Of a stretch of DNA of 32,000 nt, positions 1 through 20,467 are shown in pieces. Within the stretch, counting starts at the first letter, position 1. Every line of letters starts with the position of its first letter. Below the pieces are notes generated by a model that saw nothing but the letters and a program-made list of their open reading frames with translations, did not search any database and had not been told where the DNA came from. This DNA comes from Alkanindiges sp. WGS2144 (lineage in GTDB: Bacteria; Pseudomonadota; Gammaproteobacteria; Pseudomonadales; Moraxellaceae). The translations under genes and the position numbers were made by a program. Where the stretch lies: NCBI RefSeq assembly GCF_043950625.1, contig NZ_CP171007.1. The stretch is one strand, 5' to 3'.

Positions 1-747
1 ATCATTGCATACCGATTGATGGCAATGCAGGCTAAACGTAGGGCTACCCGAACCATTAAAACACAGTTGCCCATCATTAAACCATGCAAAATGCTGCTGG
101 ATATAGTCAATAAACTGTTGATAACTGGCCTGTGATTGCTGATAGCTTTTTTCCAAAGACTGCAAGATCGCAGGAATTTTACTCACGTGGGCATCGTAGC
201 CCATCAGGCCAGAAAACTTTAAACATTGCGGATGCTGGCTAATTAGTTGTAATAAGGGCTGTAGCTTTTCAGGTTGTTGCAGGCCACCCCGATGCAAGCC
301 AATATCAATTTCAATATTAATCTGCAATCGGATCTGCTGCTGCATGGCCAGCTGTAAGTATTGCTGCAAGCGCTCCAGACTATCAACCAGCCACTGTATT
401 GGAGTATTTTTATGTTGCGGATATTGCTGATAAAAATGCCGTACCGCGGCAATGGGCATAGGTTTGCCCAGTAATATATCAGCCTGTGGAAATTGCTGTA
501 AAACCAGCGGCAAATGCGGTGCGTGAAACACCATAAAACGCTGGCAGTTCAGCTTGGCTGCAATATAGTTAATGAGCGGCATACTCTCTAAAGACTTGAC
601 CACCAGACGCGGTTTTAAATGACCAAGCTGCTGCTGAGCATAGGCAATATTGGTATCCAGACTGGCCTGATCCACAACTAAAGCAGGAATGCCTTGCCCT
701 TGATTTTTAAGCACTTCATTGAGCTGCTGGTAAAAGCTTGCTTGCAT
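1..747 (-). CDS. Fold-type III PLP enzyme (alanine-racemase N-terminal domain / DSD1-like, i.e. D-threonine aldolase or D-serine dehydratase-like). Only the first 249 codons are present; the gene runs off the window edge.
   Basis: Absent from the ORF track because it has no in-window stop. My hand translation of the minus strand from the ATG at 747-745 gives MQASFYQQLNEVLKNQGQGIPALVVDQASLDTNIAYAQQQLGHLKPRLVVKSLESMPLINYIAAKLNCQRFMVFHAP...GLMGYDAHVSKIP... and stays open to base 1. 'RLVVKSLES' resembles the PLP-lysine segment and 'GLMGYDAH' the G-x-Y-x-H segment of this fold. It lies 38 bp downstream of the previous gene on the same strand. Confidence 0.55.
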   Translation of the reverse strand, partial: MQASFYQQLNEVLKNQGQGIPALVVDQASLDTNIAYAQQQLGHLKPRLVVKSLESMPLINYIAAKLNCQRFMVFHAPHLPLVLQQFPQADILLGKPMPIAAVRHFYQQYPQHKNTPIQWLVDSLERLQQYLQLAMQQQIRLQINIEIDIGLHRGGLQQPEKLQPLLQLISQHPQCLKFSGLMGYDAHVSKIPAILQSLEKSYQQSQASYQQFIDYIQQHFAWFNDGQLCFNGSGSPTFSLHCHQSVCND

Positions 748-785
748 CTTGCTTTTCCCTTTAAGGTTACTGATCTAAAAGGTTA

Positions 786-2105
786 TCAGTCTAGAAACAA
801 CTGCTGTAAATGCTGGTTTAGCCATTTTTGCTGTGGGTCGAGCTGCTCACGCAATTGCATAAAGTCATTCCAGCGCGGATAAAGTGCACGCAACTGCGGG
901 GCGCTCATGTTGTGCATTTTACCCCAGTGCGGACGTCCCTGATATTTTTGAAAAACTGGTTCAACCAGCTTAAAAATTTGCTGGCAGTCCTGCTTATGGT
1001 ACTGGTGAATGGAAATAGACGCGCTGTCCCGCTGATAAAACGGACTCAGCCAGATATCATCCGCCTTCACATAGCGATACTCCAGCGGAAAAAACATGGG
1101 GGCTTTATGCTTGCGTAGCGTGTGTACCACTTCATTTAAGCACTCCAGACCCTGCTCTGCCGGAATCTGGTATTCCATTTCATTAAAACGGGTGTTGCGC
1201 GGCGTGGGGAAAATATTGCTTGACCAGTCGATACAAGTGGTTGGCTTTACAAATACACCGAGTAATTTTTGCAAATATGGATTGACTGCCGGAAGCGCAC
1301 GCACAAGCTCTGAGCATAAGGTTAATAGCGTGTCTTCGGATGGCCAGGGCGCTTTGCGTGGACTAACCAGGTCAGTACACAGGTCTAGCGTTTTCACCAT
1401 GGACTGCTCACCATGCACAAACACAAAACTTTCAATATGCCGGTGCTGGCTTTTCCAGTCCTGCATATTGGCCAGAATTTCATCTAGCGGCTTTAAATAT
1501 ACTTCTTCTTTGAGCTGATAACGCGGCATGTTTTGCATGGTGATTTTGGTCAAAACCCCGAAACTGCCCAGTGCAACCCGCCCAGCCGTAAAAATCTCGA
1601 TATTGTGCTTCCGGTCACACCATAAAATATCACCATTAGCGGTGACTAGCTCAAAGCCTTCTACCAAGCTAGACAAGCACGGCAACTGATAGCCGGTGCC
1701 ATGTGTCCCGGTAGATACAGCACCGGCCAGACTTTGCTGGTCAATATCACCCTGATTCATTAAAGCTTGATTAATAGGATTTAAAAACTGGCCTAAGTCT
1801 TTTAGGCGTGTACCAGCATACAAGGTGCTTTGGCATAATTCGTCGTCATGATTCACCAGACCAGTCAGGTTATCCAGTGAAATAAGGGTATCGTCTGTAC
1901 ACACCAGTGGGCTAAACGAATGCCCTGCACCTACCACCCGGCACTTTTGGCGCTGCTGTACTGTATGCGCCAGTTCCTCTACCGATGCTGGCTGTATAAA
2001 TTGCGCCGGATTTGACTGCTGCAAACCTGACCAGTTCTGCCAGCTGGCTGACTGGATGTTAATACCACTCCCGGCAGTGGTGCTTATGCTATTCATATTT
2101 ATCAT
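786..2105 (-). CDS. FAD-dependent oxidase, D-arabinono-1,4-lactone oxidase / L-gulonolactone oxidase (ALO) family
   Basis: 439-aa ORF. N-terminal PCMH-type FAD-binding block 'CRVVGAGHSFSPLVCTDD'. C-terminal 'QGRPHWGKMH' is typical of the ALO domain. It starts 27 bp after the upstream gene's stop on the same strand. Confidence 0.8.
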   Translation of the reverse strand: MINMNSISTTAGSGINIQSASWQNWSGLQQSNPAQFIQPASVEELAHTVQQRQKCRVVGAGHSFSPLVCTDDTLISLDNLTGLVNHDDELCQSTLYAGTRLKDLGQFLNPINQALMNQGDIDQQSLAGAVSTGTHGTGYQLPCLSSLVEGFELVTANGDILWCDRKHNIEIFTAGRVALGSFGVLTKITMQNMPRYQLKEEVYLKPLDEILANMQDWKSQHRHIESFVFVHGEQSMVKTLDLCTDLVSPRKAPWPSEDTLLTLCSELVRALPAVNPYLQKLLGVFVKPTTCIDWSSNIFPTPRNTRFNEMEYQIPAEQGLECLNEVVHTLRKHKAPMFFPLEYRYVKADDIWLSPFYQRDSASISIHQYHKQDCQQIFKLVEPVFQKYQGRPHWGKMHNMSAPQLRALYPRWNDFMQLREQLDPQQKWLNQHLQQLFLD

Positions 2106-2132
2106 CCCTGATCTATTGTTTTGCTTGAATGT

Positions 2133-3926
2133 TTAGGACACCGCTGTTTTTAAGTTTCCGGTGTTGGTTCTTAGCGCCAGCTCATGTTTAGGCACAATGG
2201 GCGGCTGAGTGTGCTGGTCATGTTCCCGCTGCTGTTCTGGTTTGACAAATTCTTTAGCAAGCTGCTCAAAACAGGTCTGAAAGGCAGCCAGTGTCCATTG
2301 CCCAAACAGGGTATGTCCACCTTCGTAAGCCTGCTCCTGATATTCCTCATAGGTAGTAATATAGCCCATATAGTCATTGCAGTATGAGCACAGTAATACT
2401 TGCTCTATGCCTTGCGCCTGTAAAACAGGCCTGACAGTATCCACCAAGCGCTTGCCCGCTGTGGTAGTAATTTCACCGGGACAAGCCAGCAAGGCAATTT
2501 GCCCAATACGAATCATTTGCAGTGGCAGTACACTGGGAACCAGAGGGCTTTCATTAATTGCACCGGCTGCTACTTGCCGGTTCATTTCAGCAATCAAAGG
2601 ATCAATTATTCCAGGGGGTGAGCCCAGCGCCCGACCTAAAATACGTTTTTTGCCTGCCTCAAGCACAATTGCCTTTGGCCCTTGTGAGGCATAAAGCTGC
2701 TGATAATATGCTGCTTCATTATGCTTGCGCATGAGTGGACTTAAGCGTAATTTTCTAACTGCATGCGCACTTAGCTGCATGGCCTTGGTAATAGGCGCTG
2801 CTGTTCCTGGACCGTCAATGGGCGTCCCGGCAAAAAATGCTGCTCCATGGCACGGATCACTGGTAAAAGCCTGCTGGTTGCCTCCGGTGAATTCCGACTT
2901 CACATGGATATGACTAAAATCGCGATAACCCAAAATACTGTCTGTTACGCCCTCTACATTAAGAATAGGCTGGCTGAGGGCATTAAGCGCCAGATCACTT
3001 TGATAGCTACCATTTCGTTGCGCATATGCATAAACCTGGGGGCCGTTTAATTTTTTACGGCGAGCTGTGGCAGTTTTGCCTTGATAATGCGGTGATACAT
3101 CACCCGCTGAACCCTGAGCAAAAATAGCTATTGGTTGCTCTATACCCTGTTTTACAAGCCAGTTCTCGGTTTGCTCTGCTGCATAACCTTTGTTATCACC
3201 ACTATGCTTATGCAATGTACTGCCTACACAAGTGGCATGCACGCCAAATAAGGATAGCAGTGCGCTTAATTTGCCATCACGGTAAAAACCCAGCAGATTC
3301 ATATGACGATCCAGCGCCAGATGAGTTTCGTCAATACTACGCGGGCTTACGTCAGGGTTACGATTATAGGCAGCCAGTGAGCGATTCCATGCTACCGGAA
3401 TATCTGCTTTAAATTGCTCACTACCAAACTGAATAGTAGTTGGTTGCCTGCTGTGCCAGGCCTGCATAACCGCCTCTACAATGGCTTGCACCACTGCATT
3501 TAAATGTTCAGGCACAAAGCCTGGGGTTGGCATGTTGTATAATGCCTCATAAGCGCAGCCACCAGGTGCAGAATGTGTATGGGTAGCAGTGAGCATAAAA
3601 GCGCTATCATCAAAATCTGTGGCTAGCTTTTGACTTAACAGCTTACTGGCTTCACTACGCATGGCATGGGTAATGCAACCCATATCCAAACAGCAGATTA
3701 TCACCGGAGCTTGTTGTTCATTCTGGATACAAATAGCTCGTGCAAACAAGCTACTTTGCTCACCTTTTGCCCGGTGCTGCCATTGTCCATAACCAAACAT
3801 GGCATAGCCTCGGGCCTGAATATTGATACGCTGTTTTCCCCAACCGACGTTGTACATTATTTGCCCATTAATTATTTTTAACCAATCATTTATAGGTAAA
3901 ATCCGGGGCTTAGGCAAGTCTTTCAT
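2133..3926 (-). CDS. Neutral/alkaline (non-lysosomal) ceramidase-family amidohydrolase, apparently cytoplasmic (no signal peptide)
   Basis: 597-aa ORF. N-terminal block 'VGWGKQRINIQARGYAMFGYGQWQHRAKG..SLFARAI' and 'TATHTHSAPGG' match the conserved N-terminal and His-rich metal motifs of neutral ceramidases as I remember them. The first 25 residues are hydrophilic and not signal-like. Confidence 0.7.
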   Translation of the reverse strand: MKDLPKPRILPINDWLKIINGQIMYNVGWGKQRINIQARGYAMFGYGQWQHRAKGEQSSLFARAICIQNEQQAPVIICCLDMGCITHAMRSEASKLLSQKLATDFDDSAFMLTATHTHSAPGGCAYEALYNMPTPGFVPEHLNAVVQAIVEAVMQAWHSRQPTTIQFGSEQFKADIPVAWNRSLAAYNRNPDVSPRSIDETHLALDRHMNLLGFYRDGKLSALLSLFGVHATCVGSTLHKHSGDNKGYAAEQTENWLVKQGIEQPIAIFAQGSAGDVSPHYQGKTATARRKKLNGPQVYAYAQRNGSYQSDLALNALSQPILNVEGVTDSILGYRDFSHIHVKSEFTGGNQQAFTSDPCHGAAFFAGTPIDGPGTAAPITKAMQLSAHAVRKLRLSPLMRKHNEAAYYQQLYASQGPKAIVLEAGKKRILGRALGSPPGIIDPLIAEMNRQVAAGAINESPLVPSVLPLQMIRIGQIALLACPGEITTTAGKRLVDTVRPVLQAQGIEQVLLCSYCNDYMGYITTYEEYQEQAYEGGHTLFGQWTLAAFQTCFEQLAKEFVKPEQQREHDQHTQPPIVPKHELALRTNTGNLKTAVS

Positions 3927-3962
3927 CTGTTTTATAATTTTTTGTTTCGAGTGGATCAGCTG

Positions 3963-4550
3963 TTAGTGCTGGATAAACTGGTCAATACCGGTCATTAGCA
4001 TTTGCACGGCCAGAGTAATCAGCAACATACCCATTAAGCGCTCCATTGCAATGAGTATACGCTCACTCAGAAAACGCTTCAGCTTGATGGCAAAAAATAA
4101 GATCAGGCTTGAAGCCAGCCAGGCCAGAAATACCGCTGTCAGCCACTTGGGCCAATGTGCCGGGTTTTGCGTCATCATGAGCATGACGGTAGCAATACTG
4201 GATGGCCCTACTACATAAGGTACCGCTAGTGGCACAATAAATGGTTCCCCTTCAATGCGTTCTTGCAAGGGTTTTTCAGCCGATGGAAATACCATGCGAA
4301 TGGCAATTAAAAATAAAATCACGCCACCTGAAATAGTTAAAGCTGGGCCGGTAATATGAAACCAGCTTAATAAATACTGGCCTGTAAACAGAAAAATAAT
4401 CAACAACAGCAGCGCAATGAGTAACTCACGAATAATGACAATATTCTGGCGCTCAGAAGACACATTTTTGAGAGCAGATAAAAACATGGGCACATTACCC
4501 AGCGGGTCCATGACTAAAAACAGCAAAACAGCCGCAGAAATAATGGTCAT
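3963..4550 (-). CDS. MarC-family (UPF0056/YhgN-like) integral membrane protein
   Basis: 195-aa polytopic ORF starting 'MTIISAAVLLFLVMDPLGNVPMFLSAL', the characteristic MarC-family N-terminus. It ends 36 bp upstream of the ceramidase-like gene on the same strand. Confidence 0.85.
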   Translation of the reverse strand: MTIISAAVLLFLVMDPLGNVPMFLSALKNVSSERQNIVIIRELLIALLLLIIFLFTGQYLLSWFHITGPALTISGGVILFLIAIRMVFPSAEKPLQERIEGEPFIVPLAVPYVVGPSSIATVMLMMTQNPAHWPKWLTAVFLAWLASSLILFFAIKLKRFLSERILIAMERLMGMLLITLAVQMLMTGIDQFIQH

Positions 4551-4690
4551 TAGCGTTCATCAATCCTTATCTGGTTAACAGGCTTAAGGATTTTGAGCTT
4601 AGAGCAGCCCGACTTGGTGTACCAGCATTGCTGTGTATAAGAGCTGCAATTTTTTAGCACAGGCTTATGGTCACTTCAGTTTATCTTGCG

Positions 4691-5011
4691 CTAAGGCTGC
4701 CATTGGTATTGTTTTAAATCAATCCGGTCGTTAATAAACGCTACGCCTTCATTTTCCAGTTTCTGGCGTTGCAGGTCTTCGGCATAAATATCCAACTTGT
4801 GCAGGCTCAGGCGGCCTTGCGCATTAATGATCCGGTGCCAGGGCAATTCAGTATCGGGTGCCAGCAAGCGGTTAAGCGCATAACCCACTAGCCGGGCATG
4901 CCGCGGAAAGCCAGCCAGCGCGGCGATTTGCCCATAAGTGGCTACCTTGCCATAAGGCACCAGAGCAACCACCTGATAAATGTCCTGATAAATGGATGCA
5001 GAAGTGGGCAT
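4691..5011 (-). CDS. atl: Alkyltransferase-like protein (ATL; MGMT DNA-binding domain lacking the acceptor cysteine)
   Basis: 106-aa ORF with 'VPYGKVATYGQIA...RLVGYAL' and 'PWHRIINAQG'. This is the PCHR active-site motif with Cys replaced by Trp, as in E. coli YbaZ/Atl. Confidence 0.8.
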   Translation of the reverse strand: MPTSASIYQDIYQVVALVPYGKVATYGQIAALAGFPRHARLVGYALNRLLAPDTELPWHRIINAQGRLSLHKLDIYAEDLQRQKLENEGVAFINDRIDLKQYQWQP

Positions 5012-5031
5012 AAGATTTTATACAGTCCCGT

Positions 5032-5340
5032 TTAATAAGGTGCATCAATGGCAATTAAAGCAGCCATGACTTCTTTATTACTGGCATATTTTTTACGAAA
5101 ATTTTGTTCATCCCGCTCGATGGTGTGGCAACGTAGCTTGGCCATTTCGCGATTTAATTCATGATCGCGTTTTGAACCATCGCCATTCAACTCTCCGGCA
5201 AAATGCCAACACATTTCATAACGCTGCAAAAACACCTGAGCGTCCTTAGGCAATGCATTCTTTTGAGGCTGAGTCGTAGGGCTTGCCAACGCTAGCGTTG
5301 ATATACTGCTTAAGGCAAGCACAAGTAAAAATTTATTCAT
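5032..5340 (-). CDS. Small secreted/periplasmic hypothetical protein
   Basis: 102-aa ORF with a typical Sec signal peptide (MNKFLLVLALSSISTLALA/SP) and two Cys. I recognise no family. Confidence 0.55.
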   Translation of the reverse strand: MNKFLLVLALSSISTLALASPTTQPQKNALPKDAQVFLQRYEMCWHFAGELNGDGSKRDHELNREMAKLRCHTIERDEQNFRKKYASNKEVMAALIAIDAPY

Positions 5341-5370
5341 CCGTCTTTATCATCAGCTCTTTTAAATTCA

Positions 5371-5411
5371 AAAGTAGTAAAACCAGCGCACCCATTTGGC
5401 ATGGCTGGTTT
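5371..5411 (-). terminator. Candidate rho-independent terminator after prpF
   Basis: On the minus strand, AAACCAGC...GCTGGTTT forms an 8-bp outer stem with inner CCAT/ATGG pairing, followed by TTTTACTACTTTT. It sits 14 bp after the prpF stop. Confidence 0.5.
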
Positions 5412-5424
5412 GTTTATGCAGTGA

Positions 5425-6606
5425 TTAAAACGTATCAGCAGGTACCTGTACCCACCCTTCCATAATAATCCGTGCGCTACGGCTCATGATGGCCTTGGTG
5501 ACCGTCCACTCGCCGTTCACCTGTTTGGCCTCTGCGCCTACTCTGAGCGTACCAGACGGATGACCAAAACGCACTGCTTGCCGCTCTCCCCCACCAGCTG
5601 CTAAATTCACCAGCGTGCCCGGAATGGCTGCGGCGGTGCCAATTGCCACCGCGGCGGTACCCATCATGGCATGGTGTAGCTTACCCATAGATAGCGCACG
5701 TACCAGCAGATCAACATCCGCCGCTTTAATCTGTTTGCCACTGGCCGCCACATAATCCTGCGCCTTGGCCACAAAGGCAATTTTTGGTGTGTGCTGGCGA
5801 GTAGCTGCCTCAGCAGGGTCTTTGATCAACCCCATACGCAAGGCACCAGCCACCCGGATGGCCTCAAACTTTGCCAACGCTTCCGGGCTACTATTAATGG
5901 CTTCACGCAGCTCGGTGCCGGTATAGCCAATATCCTCTGCATTGACAAATACGGTAGGAATACCCGCGGTAATCATGGTGGCCTTTAGCGTACCAACGCC
6001 CGGAACCTCCAGCTCATCGACCAGATTGCCCGTAGGAAACATGGAACCTTCGCCATCATCGGAAGGATCCATGAATTCCAGTACAATTTCTGCTGCTGGA
6101 AAGGTGACGCCATCCAGTTCAAAGTCACCGGTTTCCTGTACCTGTCCATTGCTAATGGGTACATGGGCAATGATGGTTTTGCCGATGTTGGCCTGCCAGA
6201 TGCGTACTATACACATGCCATTTTCAGGAATACGGCCAGGGTCAACCAATCCGGCATGAATGGCAAACGCCCCGGCTCCGGTGGACAGGTTACCGCAGTT
6301 GCCACTCCAGTCCACAAAAGCCTTGTCAATGGATACCTGACCATACAGATAATCGACATCGTGATCCGGCTGTGTGCTTTTGGATAAAATCACGCATTTA
6401 CTGGTACTGGAAGTCGCACCGCCCATGCCATCAATATGCGCACTATAAGGATCAGGGCTGCCAATCACCCGCATAAACAATTTGTCTCGCGCTGCGCCGG
6501 GCACTTGGGCAGCTTCTGGCAGATCAGTTAAGCGAAAAAAGACACCCTTGCTGGTGCCACCACGCATGTAGGTGGCTGGAATTTTAATTTGTGGCGCATG
6601 AGTCAT
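5425..6606 (-). CDS. prpF: 2-methylaconitate cis-trans isomerase PrpF
   Basis: The ORF-track protein contains 'MTHAPQIKIPATYMRGGTSKGVFF', the canonical PrpF N-terminus. I start it at the internal ATG (6606), giving 394 aa. The 25 upstream codons of the track ORF are probably not translated. Confidence 0.85.
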   Translation of the reverse strand: MTHAPQIKIPATYMRGGTSKGVFFRLTDLPEAAQVPGAARDKLFMRVIGSPDPYSAHIDGMGGATSSTSKCVILSKSTQPDHDVDYLYGQVSIDKAFVDWSGNCGNLSTGAGAFAIHAGLVDPGRIPENGMCIVRIWQANIGKTIIAHVPISNGQVQETGDFELDGVTFPAAEIVLEFMDPSDDGEGSMFPTGNLVDELEVPGVGTLKATMITAGIPTVFVNAEDIGYTGTELREAINSSPEALAKFEAIRVAGALRMGLIKDPAEAATRQHTPKIAFVAKAQDYVAASGKQIKAADVDLLVRALSMGKLHHAMMGTAAVAIGTAAAIPGTLVNLAAGGGERQAVRFGHPSGTLRVGAEAKQVNGEWTVTKAIMSRSARIIMEGWVQVPADTF

Positions 6607-6777: not shown

Positions 6778-7632
6778 TCATGGTTCAGGCCTAACTTGCA
6801 GGCTCTCCCAGGTTTGGATCATTTGCTTTTTGGGTACGCCCCAGCGATAGCCGCCTACTGCACCACTTTGCCGAATCACCCGATGACAGGGAATAATAAA
6901 CGCCACTGGATTGGCACCAATGGCATTGGCAACAGCACGTGACGCACTAGGAGAGCCTAGTGACGAGGCAATGTCTGAATAACTGACCAATGCTCCCACA
7001 GGAATGTTGAGCAGGGTACGCCATACCGCCACCTGAAAATTGGTACCTGATACATGTAACGACAATGGCTTGGGCTGGCTGATCGCCTGCCGCATAGTTC
7101 TTTGCATATCAAACATGCTATGGACAATACCGTGGGTGGCGGCATCGTCACGTTGTAAAGTACTAAGTGGCCAGCTCCTCTGCAAATCAGCCAGTTCATG
7201 CTCCAGTGAGCTAAAATCAATAAAGCTGGCACGACAAATTCCGCGTCGGGTAAGCGCCATAAATATCGGGCCAAATGGCGTTGCATGTACACCATAAGTA
7301 ATCTGTACATCCTTGCCCTTTTGCTTGTGCTCACCCGGTGTTACCGCTTCTAGTTGTACAAAATGATCATGCAGCCGTGAACTGCCACTTAAGCCAGTTT
7401 CATATGAAACATCCAGCAGTGACCGTGACTGCGCCAGTAACTGCTTGCTATGTTCCAGTGTAAGTACCTGCAAAAACCGCTTGGGTGTAATCCCTGCCCA
7501 TTGGCAAAACATGCGCTGAAAATGAAAGGGGCTTAAATGCACCTGCGCTGCAATATCATCCAGGCTGGGCTGTTCACCCACATGATTCACCAGATAGCTA
7601 ATTGCCTTTTCGATGCGTTCATAATCGGACAT
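6778..7632 (-). CDS. AraC-type HTH domain fused to methylated-DNA--protein-cysteine S-methyltransferase (Ada-like, without the N-terminal Zn/Cys4 Ada domain)
   Basis: N-terminal half has an AraC HTH ('LDDIAAQVHLSPFHFQRMFCQWAGITPKRFLQ'). C-terminal half has the OGT signature 'IPCHRVIRQSGAVGGYRWG'. I chose the ATG at 7632 because a GAGG lies 9 nt upstream of it. Confidence 0.85.
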   Translation of the reverse strand: MSDYERIEKAISYLVNHVGEQPSLDDIAAQVHLSPFHFQRMFCQWAGITPKRFLQVLTLEHSKQLLAQSRSLLDVSYETGLSGSSRLHDHFVQLEAVTPGEHKQKGKDVQITYGVHATPFGPIFMALTRRGICRASFIDFSSLEHELADLQRSWPLSTLQRDDAATHGIVHSMFDMQRTMRQAISQPKPLSLHVSGTNFQVAVWRTLLNIPVGALVSYSDIASSLGSPSASRAVANAIGANPVAFIIPCHRVIRQSGAVGGYRWGVPKKQMIQTWESLQVRPEP

Positions 7633-7909
7633 CACATGTGGCCTCAATACAATATACAGATAGGATAACCATAATAATGACCTCTACCGACCTGAATCTT
7701 GCGGATATATTCGATTTATCTGATATTCAGCAAACCGCGTGCCTTGTTGTAGCCACGTGTTTATCTTTTCCCTCATACATTTGGCCTATCAACCCCTGAT
7801 GTTACCGCAGATTGTACTTTATGAAGTGAATTGCAGTCATGGTGCCTTTATCCGCATTTCATGATTACACTGGACTTTCCGACTAGCTCAACGCCAAAGG
7901 AGCCCAATA

Positions 7910-9891: not shown

Positions 9892-10122
9892 TCAAGGTAG
9901 CGAACCAATTTTGCTCACCCATGCTGGCCGGGCACGATACGCTGACCAGACCGCGTCTCCGCCCAGCAGCATTAACAGCAAGCCCAGCGGGATACGAACC
10001 ATGGCAGGCGTTTGGACAAACCACACCGCAAAAATGCCAGCCCCTAATAAAATCAGGCCGATAACCGCCGTCAATAAGCGAAAAACAGCTTGCTCATGAA
10101 GCGCTGGTTTTTGCCTGGTCAT
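9892..10122 (-). CDS. Small two-helix membrane protein, unknown function
   Basis: 76-aa ORF with two hydrophobic stretches (LLTAVIGLILLGAGIFAVWFV and IPLGLLLMLLGG). It is tightly spaced (42 bp) upstream of rluA on the same strand. Confidence 0.45.
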   Translation of the reverse strand: MTRQKPALHEQAVFRLLTAVIGLILLGAGIFAVWFVQTPAMVRIPLGLLLMLLGGDAVWSAYRARPAWVSKIGSLP

Positions 10123-10378
10123 TTCTTTCCCTAATATTTCAATTGGACTAGGACATCTTGCCCATCACTCGGTTTCATAAGAAGTTAACAGGCGAGATAA
10201 ACCGCGTCTATTATGATACAGGCTTTGCGTAAAAGAATAAGCTACTGATGTTATGCTTATCGACCATGGCACCGCTGGAAGGCAGGTTCAGGCTACTGGA
10301 TATTTTTATGCTGAAGGATCTAAAAATTCAGCTCATCAAAATCTTTAATATCTGACAAATAAATAGGTGCCTGATTGA

Positions 10379-10385
10379 TCTTAAT
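10379..10385. repeat. Left copy of the 7-bp target-site duplication (TCTTAAT) of the IS481-family element
   Basis: TCTTAAT immediately precedes the left terminal TGTA and is repeated at 11582-11588, immediately after the right terminal TACA. Confidence 0.75.
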
Positions 10386-11581
10386 TGTATTAGTTCCGAT
10401 CTGATCGGACAAAGATCTTGAAAAAGAGAAAGTTACCCGTTTAGATAAAGGTGTCGAATCTTAATCAAACAAAGGTAACTTTCTCATGTTGCATACTACC
10501 AATCAAATCATCAAACACAAAGTAGGACTTCTGAACTTGGCAGAAGAACTACAGAATGTTTCTAAAGCCTGTAAAGTGATGGGCGTCTCTCGTGATACCT
10601 TCTACCGCTATCAGGAATCAGTTAAATCAGGCGATGTAGATGCCCTGATCAATAAGTCCCGTCGTGTACCTAACTTAAAAAACCGTGTGGATGAAGCCAC
10701 TGAACAAGCAGTGATTGACTATGCGATTCAATTTCCCGCATATGGACAGCATCGCACCAGCAATGAATTACGTAAGAGAGGTATCTTCGTATCAGGCAGC
10801 GGTGTTCGTTCCATCTGGTTGCGACACAACCTTGAGAACTTTAAAAAGCGACTTAAGGCGTTAGAGGCTAAAGTTACTCGAGACGGTATTGAACTCAATG
10901 ACCATCAGATTGCAGCACTAGAGCGTAAGCATGCAGATGATGTGGCATGCGGTGAGATTGAAACCCATCACCCAGGCTATCTGGGTGCGCAGGACACCTT
11001 TTATGTGGGCAATTTAAAGGGTGTGGGACGCATTTATCAGCAGACCTTTATCGATACTTATAGCAAGGTCGTGCATTGCAAGCTGTATACCACTAAGACA
11101 CCGATCACTGCCGCTGATTTGCTAAATGATCGGGTATTGCCGTTTTACGAATCTCATGATTTGCCAATGCTCAGAATCCTAACTGACCGCGGAACTGAAT
11201 ATTGCGGTAAGGTTGAGCAGCATGATTATGAGTTGTACCTGGCACTTAATGACATTGATCACACCAAAACCAAGGCAGCCTCACCACAGACTAATGGCAT
11301 CTGCGAACGCTTCCATAAAACCATTTTGCAAGAGTTCTACCAGATCACGTTCCGTAAAAAGCTCTACAGTACGCTTGAAACACTACAAAATGATCTGGAC
11401 GAATGGCTCAGGTTTTATAATACTGAGCGAACCCATCAGGGCAAAATGTGCTGTGGGCGTACGCCTATGGAAACATTGCTTGATGGAAAACAGATTTGGG
11501 CTCAAAAAAATCTAGCTCAAATTTAACCTGACACTCATCATCAAAAACGGGTAACTGTTAGATCAGGTTTGAGCTAGTACA
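10386..11581 (+). mobile_element. IS481-family insertion sequence (~1.2 kb), apparently intact
   Basis: Imperfect terminal inverted repeats: TGTATTAGTTCCGATCTGATCGGACA on the left versus the reverse complement of the right end, TGTACTAGCTCAAACCTGATCTAACA (19 of 26 identical by my count). There is a single 346-aa DDE transposase ORF and a flanking 7-bp direct repeat. Confidence 0.85.
10486..11526 (+). CDS. IS481-family DDE transposase
   Basis: 346-aa ORF. N-terminal HTH ('ACKVMGVSRDTFYRYQE') and an rve-type integrase core ('DTFYVG..','LTDRGTEYCG','TNGICERFHKT','YNTERTHQG'). Confidence 0.9.
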   Translation: MLHTTNQIIKHKVGLLNLAEELQNVSKACKVMGVSRDTFYRYQESVKSGDVDALINKSRRVPNLKNRVDEATEQAVIDYAIQFPAYGQHRTSNELRKRGIFVSGSGVRSIWLRHNLENFKKRLKALEAKVTRDGIELNDHQIAALERKHADDVACGEIETHHPGYLGAQDTFYVGNLKGVGRIYQQTFIDTYSKVVHCKLYTTKTPITAADLLNDRVLPFYESHDLPMLRILTDRGTEYCGKVEQHDYELYLALNDIDHTKTKAASPQTNGICERFHKTILQEFYQITFRKKLYSTLETLQNDLDEWLRFYNTERTHQGKMCCGRTPMETLLDGKQIWAQKNLAQI

Positions 11582-11588
11582 TCTTAAT
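11582..11588. repeat. Right copy of the 7-bp target-site duplication (TCTTAAT)
   Basis: See the left copy at 10379-10385. Confidence 0.75.
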
Positions 11589-12650
11589 CCATGTTCCTTT
11601 AAATATTGGATTACATCTTCCTCCTGATTCATGTTTAGATTAAATTTAATCAGCTACGAAAAATAATCTCTTTAATCATCAGCTACGCTAGCTGAAGCTT
11701 TTGGTATTGCATTTACTACTATAACCTCGATATTTTTTAATTGAGTATTTTTTACTAGCCCATTGAAACTCTTCCAACGTTTATCAGTTATTCCTTCATT
11801 GTATAAAACTAGGTATATTCCTTTTTGAGTTTTCTCAGCTTTTTGATAAATAGGAAGTTGTTTTTCATAACCATGTGCTAGCTGATTATTAGAAGTTAAT
11901 TTTATTTCAACAATTACTTTGGCCGATGCTCCTAAGCTAATTTTAAAATCTACAGGCCCTCTACCTGCATCTGCTTCGGGCGACAAGTCCAAGTTATTTG
12001 CATGGCAGTAAGCACAAGCTATACCAAAAAATAATAACTGGGCTGCGGACTCATGTTTTCTTTTATTTTTATCATCATAGAGTAATTTACTTAATCCATT
12101 GTTTTCAATTAAACCTTTAAAATGCATGCAAATTTGTTTTACCACATTATATACATCATCCAATGTAGGATTTTTATTCAGCTTTAATTCTAAAGGTGAT
12201 TCAGCTAGTACATTTTGTGCTGTTCTATACCAAATCACCTCACCAGTTTTATCTTCCTCAAAATTATAAAATTTAGGTTTAGATTTGGAATAAGCCGCCA
12301 AGAGCTCTTGTAGAAAATCAGGAAATTGAGTAAAAATATTTCTGATATGTGTTTTCTTTTCTTGGGTTGTAATTGATCTGAATGCGCCTCCTAATAATTC
12401 ATTAAAAAAATCTCTTAACTCTTTATTATGGCTAGTTATCCAATGTAAATCTGCAAATTCATTTGCTACAGGCAAATCTCTTAAAAACTCTTTAGGTACT
12501 AAAATAACAGGTTCTTCAGTATAAGGGTTTTCAGGTAAATGAACAGGTTTGTAATGTTTAGAGAACCTTAGCTCCTTTAAATCTACCCCCATTTCTTTAG
12601 ATACACGTTGGGTATAACTAATCAATTCATTAGACCTCTTGCGAAAGTCG

Positions 12651-13031
12651 TTATTGCAAGTTCATCCGGTTTACCAGTGCAGCGATTAAGTTAATGCGTA
12701 AACCGAATCTTTTCCGTCGATTTCGATAGCGTTCACTTAGTATTCTAAATCTTTTCAATTGACTGTTAATATGTTCGATTACAACTCGTATTTTTCCAAT
12801 CATTTTATTGTACTTTTTCTCAACATCAAATAAGGGTAAATTCTTCTTTTTCTTTATTGGCATCAATAATTTAAAGCCATCTTGCTCTAACCCATAGTAC
12901 CCTAAATCGGTCATAACATATTCAAAATGTTTGAATTTTTTTACTGTTTTTCTTGCCAATTTAATATCATGCTGACTGCCAGAAGATATATCTACTCCTA
13001 TGATTTGTTTACTCTTCGGATGATAGATCAC
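12651..13031 (-). CDS. IS5-family transposase OrfB (DDE C-terminal part). The frame is open from the A9 tract at 13084-13092.
   Basis: 126-aa track ORF. The same frame read upstream gives NARKKNQSKFYSGKKKKHTLKAQVIYHPK..., the typical 'YSGKKKxHTLK' continuation of IS5-family transposases. It lies in the +1 frame relative to OrfA. Confidence 0.75.
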   Translation of the reverse strand: MIYHPKSKQIIGVDISSGSQHDIKLARKTVKKFKHFEYVMTDLGYYGLEQDGFKLLMPIKKKKNLPLFDVEKKYNKMIGKIRVVIEHINSQLKRFRILSERYRNRRKRFGLRINLIAALVNRMNLQ

Positions 13032-13074
13032 TTGGGCTTTTAGCGTATGTTTCTTCTTTTTACCACTGTAGAAC

Positions 13075-13473
13075 TTACTCTGATTTTTTTTTCGGGCGTT
13101 CTATTGAACATTCTGTAGCATCAATAATGACCCAGTTAAATTGTTCGTTTGCTGTGGTAATGCTTCGTTTTGGCAAGGTAAAACGTCTTGATTTCATTAA
13201 TGCATCTTCAACCTTTTTAATAGTTCGATTCACATTACTTTCAGCGATATGGTAATTTGCAGCCAATTCCAATTGAGTGCTGTAATTCCGTAAGTAATTG
13301 AGTGTTAATAATAATTGATCCTCTATAACTAAAGTATGAGGACGCCCAGATTTCTTTTTAAGTGATTCTGCTTCTTTTAAAACTTCGACCATTTCACTAA
13401 AAACTGGTCGAGGTACACCAACCAAGCGCTTGAATTCAGAATCTGAAAAACGGTTTAATTTCTGATATTTCAT
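13075..13473 (-). CDS. IS5-family transposase OrfA (HTH part)
   Basis: 132-aa ORF ending '...IIDATECSIERPKKKSE*'. The DDE 'D' region ('DATE') sits immediately before an A9 tract. Confidence 0.8.
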   Translation of the reverse strand: MKYQKLNRFSDSEFKRLVGVPRPVFSEMVEVLKEAESLKKKSGRPHTLVIEDQLLLTLNYLRNYSTQLELAANYHIAESNVNRTIKKVEDALMKSRRFTLPKRSITTANEQFNWVIIDATECSIERPKKKSE

Positions 13474-13999
13474 GAAATCTATATTGAGGCAGTTTTTACT
13501 TTCGCAAGAGGTCTATTAATTAAGATATTAGATGTCATATCGCTTATTAAATCAGGACCGACACCCTCCTCAAAAGCCCCAACTAATTCAAATATTGTAG
13601 GATCTTCATTACCAGCTTCTATGATTGCTTTGATATTGGTTAAAATTTGCTGTTTCTTTTTCTCACCAATACCACTTCCTTTAGTACTGTTTGAGGAATA
13701 TCCTATACTAAATCCTTTGATTTCATTTGTTTTAAATTTTTCAACTGCACTTTTCCAAAAGATATCCTTCTTTGATGTTCCTTTAGCTTGCTTTAACAAC
13801 CTAATTATTCCCTCAAAAAAAACTTGGATTTTAGAATAAGAGTTTTTAAATTCTGGAATTTCAGTATTTCTAATTAAACTAGGATCAATAAACAATCTTG
13901 TATCAACACCTAAAATTGGGTCAAATGCTTGTGTAGCTTCGAATTTTACCTTATCAATCTTATATTCATCTGTGAAACTTATAATCATTTCTTGCCCCA

Positions 14000-14031
14000 A
14001 AATAAAAACCCCATCTCACGATAGGGTTTTT
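14000..14031 (-). terminator. Rho-independent terminator of acnD
   Basis: Minus strand AAAAACCCTATC-GTGA-GATGGGGTTTTTATTTT: a GC-containing stem, GTGA tetraloop and U-tract, 21 bp after the acnD stop. Confidence 0.8.
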
Positions 14032-18915: not shown

Positions 18916-19518
18916 TTACTTCGACACCGACGTATGCCCCGTCCGGCTAAAGCGCATTAACCAGTGCGCTGCTTCCCCGGCGTAGTCCACGCCAATACGT
19001 TTGGATACGCTTACTGGTACATCTGACCTGGTTTTATCTTCTACCCATAGGCCTAAATCTTTACTTAACAAATGACTATTTAGCCGCTTATCAATCTGCA
19101 AGAACTTGGTCAACTTGGCCGGGCCTGCACCTGCGCGTATGTCCTCGCCTTCTATATATACTGCACGGATGAGTACCGCTTCCGGCTGGCCAATTTCAGT
19201 GGTGACGATATTAAGCAAATAATGCAGCCCATAAATCAGGTACACATAAATCGTGCCAGCTTCCTTATACATCACGCTGGTACGCGGTGTGTGACGGCCA
19301 CCAAAAGCATGACAGGCGGCATCCTGTATGCCCAAATAGGCTTCGGTTTCAGTAATCACCGCTTTAATTACCCGGCCATCTTCCATCCGACGGCACAGGT
19401 AACAGCCAATCAGGTCCGCCGCCACTACAGCAGTAGGTCGCCTAAACCACTCATGTGGCAGAATACCAGAGGTGTTTGGATTAGTCGGTTGCGTAGAAGA
19501 TTTAGCTGAACTGGGCAC
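18916..19518 (-). CDS. mpg: DNA-3-methyladenine glycosylase, Mpg/AAG family
   Basis: 200-aa ORF with a GTG start. 'VAADLIGCYL', 'ITETEAYLGIQDAACHAFGGRHTPRTSVMY...GTIYVYLIYGLHYLLNIV'. Confidence 0.8.
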   Translation of the reverse strand: MPSSAKSSTQPTNPNTSGILPHEWFRRPTAVVAADLIGCYLCRRMEDGRVIKAVITETEAYLGIQDAACHAFGGRHTPRTSVMYKEAGTIYVYLIYGLHYLLNIVTTEIGQPEAVLIRAVYIEGEDIRAGAGPAKLTKFLQIDKRLNSHLLSKDLGLWVEDKTRSDVPVSVSKRIGVDYAGEAAHWLMRFSRTGHTSVSK

Positions 19519-19645
19519 GGCGGGTTGTCATTCCTGATACTTGTTTTTCTTACTTTAAGACCAATATTGCTTGGGTAATAAGCCAATTAAGTCCCTTATT
19601 TGTAAGTCTGTTTTAACGCCCTTCCAGAATGTGCTGAGTTTGCCC

Positions 19646-20467
19646 ATGCCCGAATTACCCGAAGTTGAAACCACCAAAACCAGCCTTGAGCCACTGCTTG
19701 GTCAAAGCATAACCCACATACAGGTGCGTCAACCTAGCCTGCGCTGGCCAGTGCCGGATGACTTGAGCAAACTGTGCGGACAAAAACTGCTTAAGCTAGA
19801 GCGCCGCGCCAAGTATATTCTAGCGCATTTTGAACGCGATGCCTTGTTGCTGCATTTGGGCATGTCGGGTAGTTTTAGTATCTGCGCCCCTGCTCAGGAC
19901 TTGCGTAAACATGATCACGTGGTTTTACAGTTTATGGACGATAGCGGGCATCTTACTGAACTACGCTACCATGACCCACGCCGTTTTGGCTGTATGTTAT
20001 GGCTGGAAAATGGCACGCACACGCTACTCAGTAAGCTTGGGCCAGAACCTTTAGATAACGCATTTAATGCCGAGTATCTGGCAAGCAAATTAAAAGGTAA
20101 AAACACGGCCATTAAGGTAGCAATCATGGACAATACGGTGGTGGTGGGCGTAGGGAATATTTACGCCACTGAAAGCCTGTTTAATACCGGCATTCACCCA
20201 GCGCGATCTGCGTGTTCATTAAGCATGGATGAAATCAATACACTGGTGCCTGAAATCAAGCGCATTTTAAAACAGGCCATTGATTTAGGCGGTTCTACCT
20301 TGCGCGACTATACCAATGCCATGGGCGAAAACGGCTATTTTCAGCAAACTCTGCTGGCTTATGGCCGGGCTGGTGAAATGTGCGTCAATTGTGAGACCAC
20401 CTTAGAAACCCTGAAACTCGGCCAGCGTGCCAGTGTGTTTTGTCCCCAATGCCAACCTTTGAAATAG
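19646..20467 (+). CDS. mutM: Formamidopyrimidine-DNA glycosylase
   Basis: The canonical 'MPELPEVETTK' begins at the ATG at 19646, so the track ORF's 25-codon extension is unlikely. C-terminal zinc finger 'CVNCETTLETLKLGQRASVFCPQCQ'. Confidence 0.9.
   Translation: MPELPEVETTKTSLEPLLGQSITHIQVRQPSLRWPVPDDLSKLCGQKLLKLERRAKYILAHFERDALLLHLGMSGSFSICAPAQDLRKHDHVVLQFMDDSGHLTELRYHDPRRFGCMLWLENGTHTLLSKLGPEPLDNAFNAEYLASKLKGKNTAIKVAIMDNTVVVGVGNIYATESLFNTGIHPARSACSLSMDEINTLVPEIKRILKQAIDLGGSTLRDYTNAMGENGYFQQTLLAYGRAGEMCVNCETTLETLKLGQRASVFCPQCQPLK

Follow-up and report, generated by a model that had tools for sequence, protein, structure and literature searches.

A predicted cytoplasmic variant of the Pseudomonas aeruginosa sphCD system linked to a truncated ceramidase homologue in Alkanindiges sp. 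WGS2144

Sphingosine is an antimicrobial lipid of the host. The closest described bacterial system to the locus reported here is that of Pseudomonas aeruginosa, in which sphA, sphBCD and cerN make up the sphingosine-responsive SphR regulon (LaBauve & Wargo 2014, PMC3900636). The sphBCD genes are induced by sphingosine or sphingomyelin (PMC3900636, PMC5150637), and cells need sphB and sphC to grow with sphingoid bases and to deplete sphingosine (DiGianivittorio et al. 2025, PMC11893366). SphC, an experimentally validated substrate of twin-arginine translocation (Tat) (PMC6085387), was proposed to oxidise C1, and SphD to cleave the product into glycine together with a long-chain aldehyde; the same study noted orthologues of SphR and of some regulon members in Acinetobacter haemolyticus (LaBauve & Wargo 2014, PMC3900636). 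The literature searched yielded neither enzymological work of a later date nor a study on the cluster of Acinetobacter. Here we describe a 32,000-nucleotide stretch of Alkanindiges sp. WGS2144 (contig NZ_CP171007.1; the whole stretch is called the window below), in which three minus-strand genes at positions 1-3857 encode a ceramidase-like protein, a flavin adenine dinucleotide (FAD) oxidase and a pyridoxal phosphate (PLP) enzyme. On balance, we favour the view that these genes form a three-gene operon by which ceramide and sphingoid bases are dealt with in the cytoplasm, and that this operon is a variant form of sphCD of P. aeruginosa.

In P. aeruginosa (locus L086, GCA_037997005.1) the gene order is sphB, encoding a cytochrome c; sphC, with FAD_binding_4 and ALO domains; sphD, with an Ala_racemase_N domain; sphA, for a porin of the Phenol_MetA_deg family; sphR, with Arabinose_bd and HTH_18 domains; and argB. 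In the window, four co-directional open reading frames (ORFs) occupy the minus strand between positions 1 and 4550, encoding a MarC protein, the ceramidase-like protein, the oxidase and the PLP enzyme, with spacers of 36, 27 and 38 bp between the maximal ORFs. Families were assigned from Pfam and NCBIfam profile scores, judged against the cut-offs of the models, and an earlier description made from the letters of the DNA alone (the sequence-only reading) had given the four genes, their families and their spacers as we find them. The features are as follows.

3963-4550, minus strand: MarC/YhgN-family membrane protein, 195 aa (PF01914, E 2e-48).
3873-3895, minus strand: promoter-like block CTATAAA ... 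TAAAAATAA, 16-41 nt upstream of the next gene's start codon at M24, conserved between the window and the metagenome loci L002 and L004.
2133-3857, minus strand: truncated neutral-ceramidase homologue without a signal peptide, 574 aa when read from M24 (PF04734); the maximal ORF is 2133-3926, 597 aa.
786-2105, minus strand: SphC-like FAD oxidase of the ALO/GULO/alditol-oxidase type, 439 aa (PF01565 and PF04030, TIGR01679).
1-747, minus strand: SphD-like fold-type III PLP enzyme, first 249 codons of a gene cut by the window edge (PF01168).

The likeness to sphBCD (PA5328-PA5326) lies first of all in the oxidase and the PLP enzyme. The window oxidase is 41% identical to SphC over its full length (424 aligned residues, E 1e-118). 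The complete PLP protein of the same organism was recovered as P0318 (388 aa, 100% identical across the 249 codons in the window), and this protein is 41% identical to SphD over 385 residues (E 9e-103). In both systems an ALO-type oxidoreductase gene is directly followed by the gene of a PLP enzyme with the Ala_racemase_N fold, in the window after a spacer of 38 bp, and both SphC and the window oxidase pass the TIGR01679 model. In a family search that was exhaustive over 50%-identity cluster representatives, P0129, which represents the cluster of SphC and is 61% identical to it, ranked 9th among the 8,249 hits to the window oxidase. These identities, the shared order and this rank make the oxidase-PLP pair a close subfamily relative of SphC-SphD. 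The connection to sphBCD and cerN, to which the sequence-only reading had pointed, proves correct. Acinetobacter relatives of the window cluster also carry a divergent regulator with the domain architecture of SphR, and in P. aeruginosa, too, the functional set includes a ceramidase, as cerN is within the SphR regulon (PMC3900636).

The two systems differ in several respects. The window lacks the SphB cytochrome c: a tblastn search of the window with SphB gave nothing significant (best E 0.23), and no ORF with a CxxCH motif was found in window positions 1-6000, in L002 or in L004. No signal peptide was seen at the N-termini of the ceramidase-like protein, the oxidase or the PLP enzyme. In the oxidase only 21 residues precede the WxNWSG motif, and they contain neither an RR motif nor a hydrophobic stretch, as a Tat signal would, whereas SphC carries the validated signal MPSHLSRRQLLQRAGALGAFAAMVGNPALA. 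The start of P0318 coincides with the conserved core of its family, whereas P. aeruginosa SphD apparently has an unannotated Tat signal. Finally, the ceramidase homologue of the window is in the operon, truncated and predicted to be intracellular, whereas CerN is unlinked and secreted.

Two features of the P. aeruginosa locus itself deserve a comment. Upstream of the called sphD start at position 11477 of L086, positions 11408-11476 contain an in-frame GTG followed by the Tat-like sequence NRRKFMFAGLGAGALLAGTAAW, and the PLP homologue of the metagenome locus L119 starts with MRRRSLLLGGLGTGVLAAAGALAL, which is also Tat-like. SphD may thus be Tat-exported, its start having been called too far downstream in L086, and the whole SphBCD pathway would then be periplasmic. 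In the same locus a frameshift within positions 10001-11394 splits sphC into a 37-aa piece with the Tat signal and a 436-aa piece, reflecting either a pseudogene or a sequencing error. As to the position of these genes, neither sphC nor sphD was found within 10 kb of rph in 80 Pseudomonadaceae loci (L006-L085, all from relatives of P. aeruginosa), and in L006 (Pseudomonas sp. NY15181, with an Rph 97% identical to that of P. aeruginosa) the order, judged by ORF lengths alone, is seemingly pyrE, argB, algC with no sph genes. The sph position between pyrE and argB, as seen in L086, is not common to these relatives.

The oxidase contains PF01565 and the ALO domain PF04030 (E 2.4e-58), scores 449 bits against TIGR01679 'bact_FAD_ox' (cut-off 292) and has the motif 'RPHWGK' close to its C-terminus. 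The closest solved structures are 8OT8 and the alditol oxidase 2VFR. With alditol oxidase and with GULO, ALO and GALDH, all of the vanillyl-alcohol oxidase (VAO) family, the window oxidase shares the FAD_binding_4 and ALO domains, the 'HWGK' motif and a 'GxGHSF' motif, which in the ALO/alditol-oxidase family we take to carry the histidine that binds FAD covalently; the gatekeeper position for O2 reactivity is alignable as well. Alditol oxidase and the aldonolactone oxidoreductases oxidise alcohol carbons. Unlike the aldonolactone oxidoreductases, the window oxidase falls below the cut-off of the sugar-lactone oxidase model (217 against 397 bits) and belongs to a subfamily paired with a PLP enzyme, and its predicted substrate is an amino-diol lipid rather than a sugar.

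The gatekeeper position was taken from the comparison of the A113G variant of L-galactonolactone dehydrogenase (8QNC) with the non-variant enzyme (8QNR). It is occupied by Gly119 in the window oxidase and by Ala in SphC. Among 150 family members, the 123 proteins without a signal have Gly in 120 cases, and the Tat-type members have Pro (16), Gly (8), Ala (2: SphC and the Spongiibacter protein that represents it) or Ser (1). The Gly gatekeeper would fit a cytoplasmic oxidase that uses O2, as opposed to a periplasmic dehydrogenase linked to a cytochrome.

The PLP enzyme matches PF01168 (Ala_racemase_N, E 2.7e-17), and in the alignment of its family both K51, aligned to the lysine in the 3LLX motif 'HLK', and the motif 'EIDxGxxRxG' are invariant. 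The best matches of the family profile among solved structures are 3GWQ, 6QKB, 3LLX and 4V15, with E values of about 1e-6 for the D-serine deaminase 3GWQ and the D-3-hydroxyaspartate aldolase 6QKB (BhcC), 2e-5 for the D-threonine aldolase 4V15 and about 2e-3 for alanine racemases. An AlphaFold (AF2) model of the enzyme has a pLDDT (predicted local distance difference test) of 88.8; its top Foldseek match is 4V15, at a template modelling (TM) score of 0.70-0.73, and the aldolase/dehydratase group scores 0.67-0.71 against 0.60-0.69 for alanine racemases. With the group of D-threonine aldolase, DSD1 and BhcC, the window enzyme shares the fold-type III barrel, the C-terminal beta domain and the PLP lysine. 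It differs from this group in belonging to a subfamily of its own, that of the SphD-like proteins, for which there is no curated model. For the window enzyme Pfam gives the N-terminal domain only, PF14031 having no match at E <= 0.1, and identity to any solved member is only 12-17%. The sequence-only reading had called the protein a DSD1/alanine-racemase-fold enzyme; the fold-type III assignment through PF01168 stands, and the 'DSD1-type' label, as judged from these comparisons, is a remote relationship only. An aldolase-like reading of the enzyme is favoured, not proven.

Databases mostly name the PLP homologues 'alanine racemase'. We reject this identity for the PLP gene, given about 26 bits against the alanine racemase equivalog TIGR00492 (alr), whose cut-off is 168, and a profile that is nearer to the clade of D-hydroxy-amino-acid aldolases and dehydratases. 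Source names of this kind, 'alanine racemase' for the one gene and 'D-arabinono-1,4-lactone oxidase' for the other, speak for an explanation in which the neighbourhood is due to chance and the two genes encode an ordinary racemase and a sugar-lactone oxidase. Besides the racemase score and the PLP profile, this explanation has to face an oxidase that stays below the sugar-lactone oxidase cut-off, yet above that of TIGR01679, and an adjacency that is kept across lineages in which the proteins are only 41-70% identical and the flanks unrelated. It was already disfavoured, and we consider it very improbable.

The ceramidase-like protein matches PF04734 (Ceramidase_alk, E 1.6e-90) and nothing else in Pfam; a C-terminal domain was not detected. 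Its alignment with the P. aeruginosa neutral ceramidase (CerN/PaCD; 2ZWS, E 3e-63) stops at about residue 490 of the 646 in the chain, beyond which the window protein has a conserved tail of about 40 aa. The catalytic domains are homologous, and the residues aligned to H97, H99, R160, H204, E411, Y448 and Y460 of 2ZWS, which we take to be zinc ligands and catalytic residues, are all retained. The window protein differs from CerN/PaCD, which has PF04734 and a C-terminal domain, in lacking this domain of about 150 residues, in lacking a signal peptide and in scoring far below the equivalog level (238 bits against NF041649, cut-off 1200). With the catalytic residues kept, but neither C-terminal domain nor signal peptide and such a score, the protein is likely to be an active amidase of a distinct, intracellular, single-domain clade.

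Its length needs a correction. The sequence-only reading had described a 597-aa protein of the ceramidase family without a signal peptide; the family and the missing signal are as described, and the length is probably 574 aa. In the alignment M24 of the ORF lies opposite residue 3 of 2ZWS, homologues begin at the matching residue ('MY.xGWxKQ'), and the supposed 23-residue N-terminal extension contains the CTATAAA...TAAAAATAA block, which is kept in the window, L002 and L004 despite differing upstream genes. Because homologues start at M24 and the conserved block is inside the extension, we take the gene to be 2133-3857; M24 is probably the true start, and the gap to MarC would then be 105 bp rather than 36. 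A separate promoter is thus probable for the ceramidase-like gene, 105 bp past the stop codon of MarC, a role that we infer for the block. Scans of window positions 1-5500 for promoter and terminator consensus sequences gave counts not clearly above the shuffled expectation.

MarC, which the sequence-only reading had included in the module, is ruled out as a member, as it is not co-conserved with the other three genes. It is absent next to the trio in the Acinetobacter locus L001 (CP102099) and in L002, is parted from the trio in L004 by a gene for a 106-aa DNA_binding_1 protein, and has no homologue within 6 kb in 79 metagenome loci. The order of MarC and the small gene, which resembles an alkyltransferase-like (ATL) gene, is swapped between the window (3963-5011: ATL-like, MarC, ceramidase-like) and L004 (8972-9905: MarC, ATL-like, ceramidase-like), a rearrangement confined to the region immediately upstream of the trio.

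The trio itself is kept, in the order ceramidase-like gene, oxidase gene, PLP gene, in L001, L002 and L004, each time with different flanks. L002 and L004 are metagenome lineages with ceramidase-like proteins 67-69% identical to that of the window, and in L001 the trio is preceded by a divergent regulator of SphR architecture (Arabinose_bd and HTH_18; 26% identical to SphR, E 3e-41). A metagenome scan with the ceramidase-like alignment gave 79 loci, in which the partner genes were sought by tblastn, and 49 of them were long enough to judge. Twenty-five loci of 38-43% GC, which are Acinetobacter-like, have the trio, and in 16 of these a divergent AraC regulator of SphR architecture lies inside the sequenced flank. 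A further arrangement is seen in L119 (68% GC), where the order is SphR (52% identical to P. aeruginosa SphR), oxidase, PLP enzyme, ceramidase-like gene.

The region between araC and the ceramidase-like gene is strongly conserved in L001 and L094-L165, with the motif 'GTCCGTTTTGCCCCCC ... TTTAACCCTGTTGGGTATCGCATAATTTTGATTAACTTTCAAC' about 45-125 nt upstream of the ceramidase-like start, and probably holds divergent promoters together with the operator of the regulator. The motif is absent upstream of the genes in the window, L002 and L004. In two Acinetobacter-like loci (L097:2416-2730 and L168:956-1270) the oxidase finds, in the stretch from the ceramidase-like gene to the PLP gene, a best tblastn match of only about 105 aa, and the oxidase gene may have been deleted or disrupted there.

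With these results in mind, a pathway may be proposed for the window operon. The observations behind it are homology, gene order and co-conservation, together with missing signals and the lack of a nearby cytochrome gene; every chemical step is inferred. In the first step, the truncated ceramidase homologue would strip the N-acyl chain from ceramide, or from a related N-acyl sphingoid base, inside the cell. The FAD oxidase would then oxidise the C1 primary alcohol, and because of the Gly gatekeeper the electrons would probably pass to O2 and not to a cytochrome. The PLP enzyme would finally split the resulting D-configured 2-amino-3-hydroxy acid into glycine together with a long-chain aldehyde. 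The likely purpose would be the removal of a toxic sphingoid base, with recovery of some of its carbon and nitrogen. The stereochemical argument of the sequence-only reading is sound as chemistry: oxidised at C1, a sphingoid base would yield a beta-hydroxy amino acid of D configuration, which would suit a fold-type III aldolase. The C1 oxidation and retro-aldol cleavage put forward in the sequence-only reading are not new, as they were published in 2014 as a hypothesis for SphC and SphD (PMC3900636).

Several observations weigh against this proposal. In P. aeruginosa, sphD is dispensable for growth with sphingosine (PMC11893366); biochemical proof of the SphC/SphD chemistry was not found in the literature searched, Pseudomonas included. 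Homologues of SphR, SphA and SphB are absent from the 32-kb window. Alditol oxidase has Ala at the aligned gatekeeper position, so that the gatekeeper rule is a soft one; this enzyme uses O2 even with Ala. Of the 49 judgeable metagenome loci, 23 have the ceramidase-like gene but not the pair; they are diverse and more divergent (41-72% GC, each with at least 1.4 kb of downstream sequence), and the pair occurs without the ceramidase-like gene in the Moraxellaceae Aquirhabdus parva and L088. Tat signals are present on the oxidase and the PLP enzyme of L119 and absent from its ceramidase-like protein, and the three enzymes of that locus therefore need not share a compartment.

Co-conservation of the trio thus holds for L001, L002, L004, the 25 metagenome loci and L119, but not for the loci in which the ceramidase-like gene or the pair stands alone. 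Since each occurs without the other, and since their linkage shows two gene orders, the oxidase-PLP pair is the core of the system and the ceramidase-like gene an accessory, linked to it in at least two arrangements. The neighbours of the solitary ceramidase-like genes vary, with an acyl-CoA dehydrogenase gene recurring at 5 loci and one for an AraC regulator at 3, and no consistent partner was found among them. The pair of Aquirhabdus parva (L087:6639-12442, CP031222) is followed by a TetR regulator, a major facilitator superfamily (MFS) transporter and, 2.3 kb downstream of the pair, a porin of the SphA type (Phenol_MetA_deg); with an Mla lipid-transport operon upstream and a phospholipase A1 gene downstream, this neighbourhood has a lipid theme.

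The frequent separation of the two parts bears on the place of the ceramidase-like protein in the pathway. It might not perform the first catabolic step at all, but work in the condensing direction, N-acylating cytoplasmic sphingoid bases for detoxification, or it might be a separate lipid amidase linked to sphCD in some lineages only. The neutral ceramidase of P. aeruginosa also runs the reverse, ceramide-forming reaction. Along with the many genomes in which the ceramidase-like gene and the pair are apart, the export of the L119 pair but not of its ceramidase-like protein, and the acyl-CoA dehydrogenase genes beside some solitary copies, would agree with such a role. Linkage in two gene orders (ceramidase-like gene, oxidase, PLP enzyme; and SphR, oxidase, PLP enzyme, ceramidase-like gene) argues for a shared function instead, as do the tight spacers of 27 and 38 bp in the window operon and, in P. 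aeruginosa, the membership of both cerN and sphBCD in the SphR regulon (PMC3900636). We regard this explanation as quite unlikely.

The substrate is the other point at which the proposal could fail. The same architecture might serve N-acyl-serinol, a bacterial aminolipid, a short-chain amino-diol or another N-acyl amino alcohol or amino-polyol, and not ceramide or sphingosine of the host type. The three enzymes would be cytoplasmic, whereas CerN is secreted and SphC Tat-exported; the ceramidase homologue scores far below the equivalog level and is without the C-terminal domain; the closest solved oxidases act on polyols, as alditol oxidase 2VFR does; and members of the ceramidase-like family are found widely among high-GC organisms of the environment. 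Against this, the pair is nearest to the sphingosine-responsive SphC/SphD subfamily, SphR-type regulators adjoin the cluster in Acinetobacter and in L119, and a SphA-type porin lies near the pair in Aquirhabdus. We consider a different substrate unlikely, and keep to ceramide and sphingoid bases as the favoured substrates of the window operon. One may go further and speculate that the window encodes a self-contained, fully cytoplasmic, cytochrome-independent and O2-dependent route from ceramide through the sphingoid base and the D-2-amino-3-hydroxy acid to glycine and a fatty aldehyde, the first enzyme of which would define a clade of bacterial ceramidases, intracellular and single-domain, that had so far gone unrecognised and is spread over bacteria of 41-72% GC. 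This bolder model is put forward tentatively, and in its entirety it seems to us rather doubtful.

The rest of the window is ordinary chromosome, with acnD, prpF, DNA-repair genes, ffh, transporters and insertion sequence elements. By the similarity of its proteins, the organism falls close to Acinetobacter, Aquirhabdus and Paraperlucidibaca, within Moraxellaceae or near to it. Positions 10486-14000 form a low-GC stretch (down to 0.32) with an rve-type integrase ORF, two ORFs without a family match and a DDE transposase split in two ORFs (12651-13031 and 13075-13473); these are insertion sequences between pseudouridine synthase genes and acnD. The 106-aa DNA_binding_1 protein upstream of MarC (4691-5011, minus strand) has 'PWHR' in place of the methyltransferase motif 'PCHR', and because of this replacement it looks like an alkyltransferase-like protein and not an active O6-methylguanine methyltransferase. 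An intact 'PCHR' is present in a fusion of an AraC-type helix-turn-helix (HTH) domain with a methyltransferase (6778-7647, minus strand), and the window also encodes an alkylpurine glycosylase (18916-19518) and Fpg (19571-20467).

What is new in the window locus is the topology, with cytoplasmic enzymes, no cytochrome and a Gly gatekeeper, as well as the truncated ceramidase clade within the operon and the breadth of this clade. Genes of the sph type are common in Acinetobacter and related Moraxellaceae, and the database names 'alanine racemase' and 'D-arabinono-1,4-lactone oxidase' are probably wrong for many of them. For the enzyme-level route by which bacteria destroy sphingosine, in which P. 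aeruginosa genetics implicate SphB and SphC, the main value of the locus is that of a simpler system. Tat export and the cytochrome partner, two experimental obstacles, are removed in the window variant, and the ceramidase homologue in the same operon completes a compact three-enzyme set for reconstitution in vitro, in which the exchange of Gly for Ala at the gatekeeper gives a testable prediction of oxidase versus dehydrogenase behaviour. If our reading is true, a fully cytoplasmic, soluble pathway could decide on the chemistry proposed for SphC and SphD in 2014, because its three soluble enzymes would need neither Tat export nor a cytochrome.

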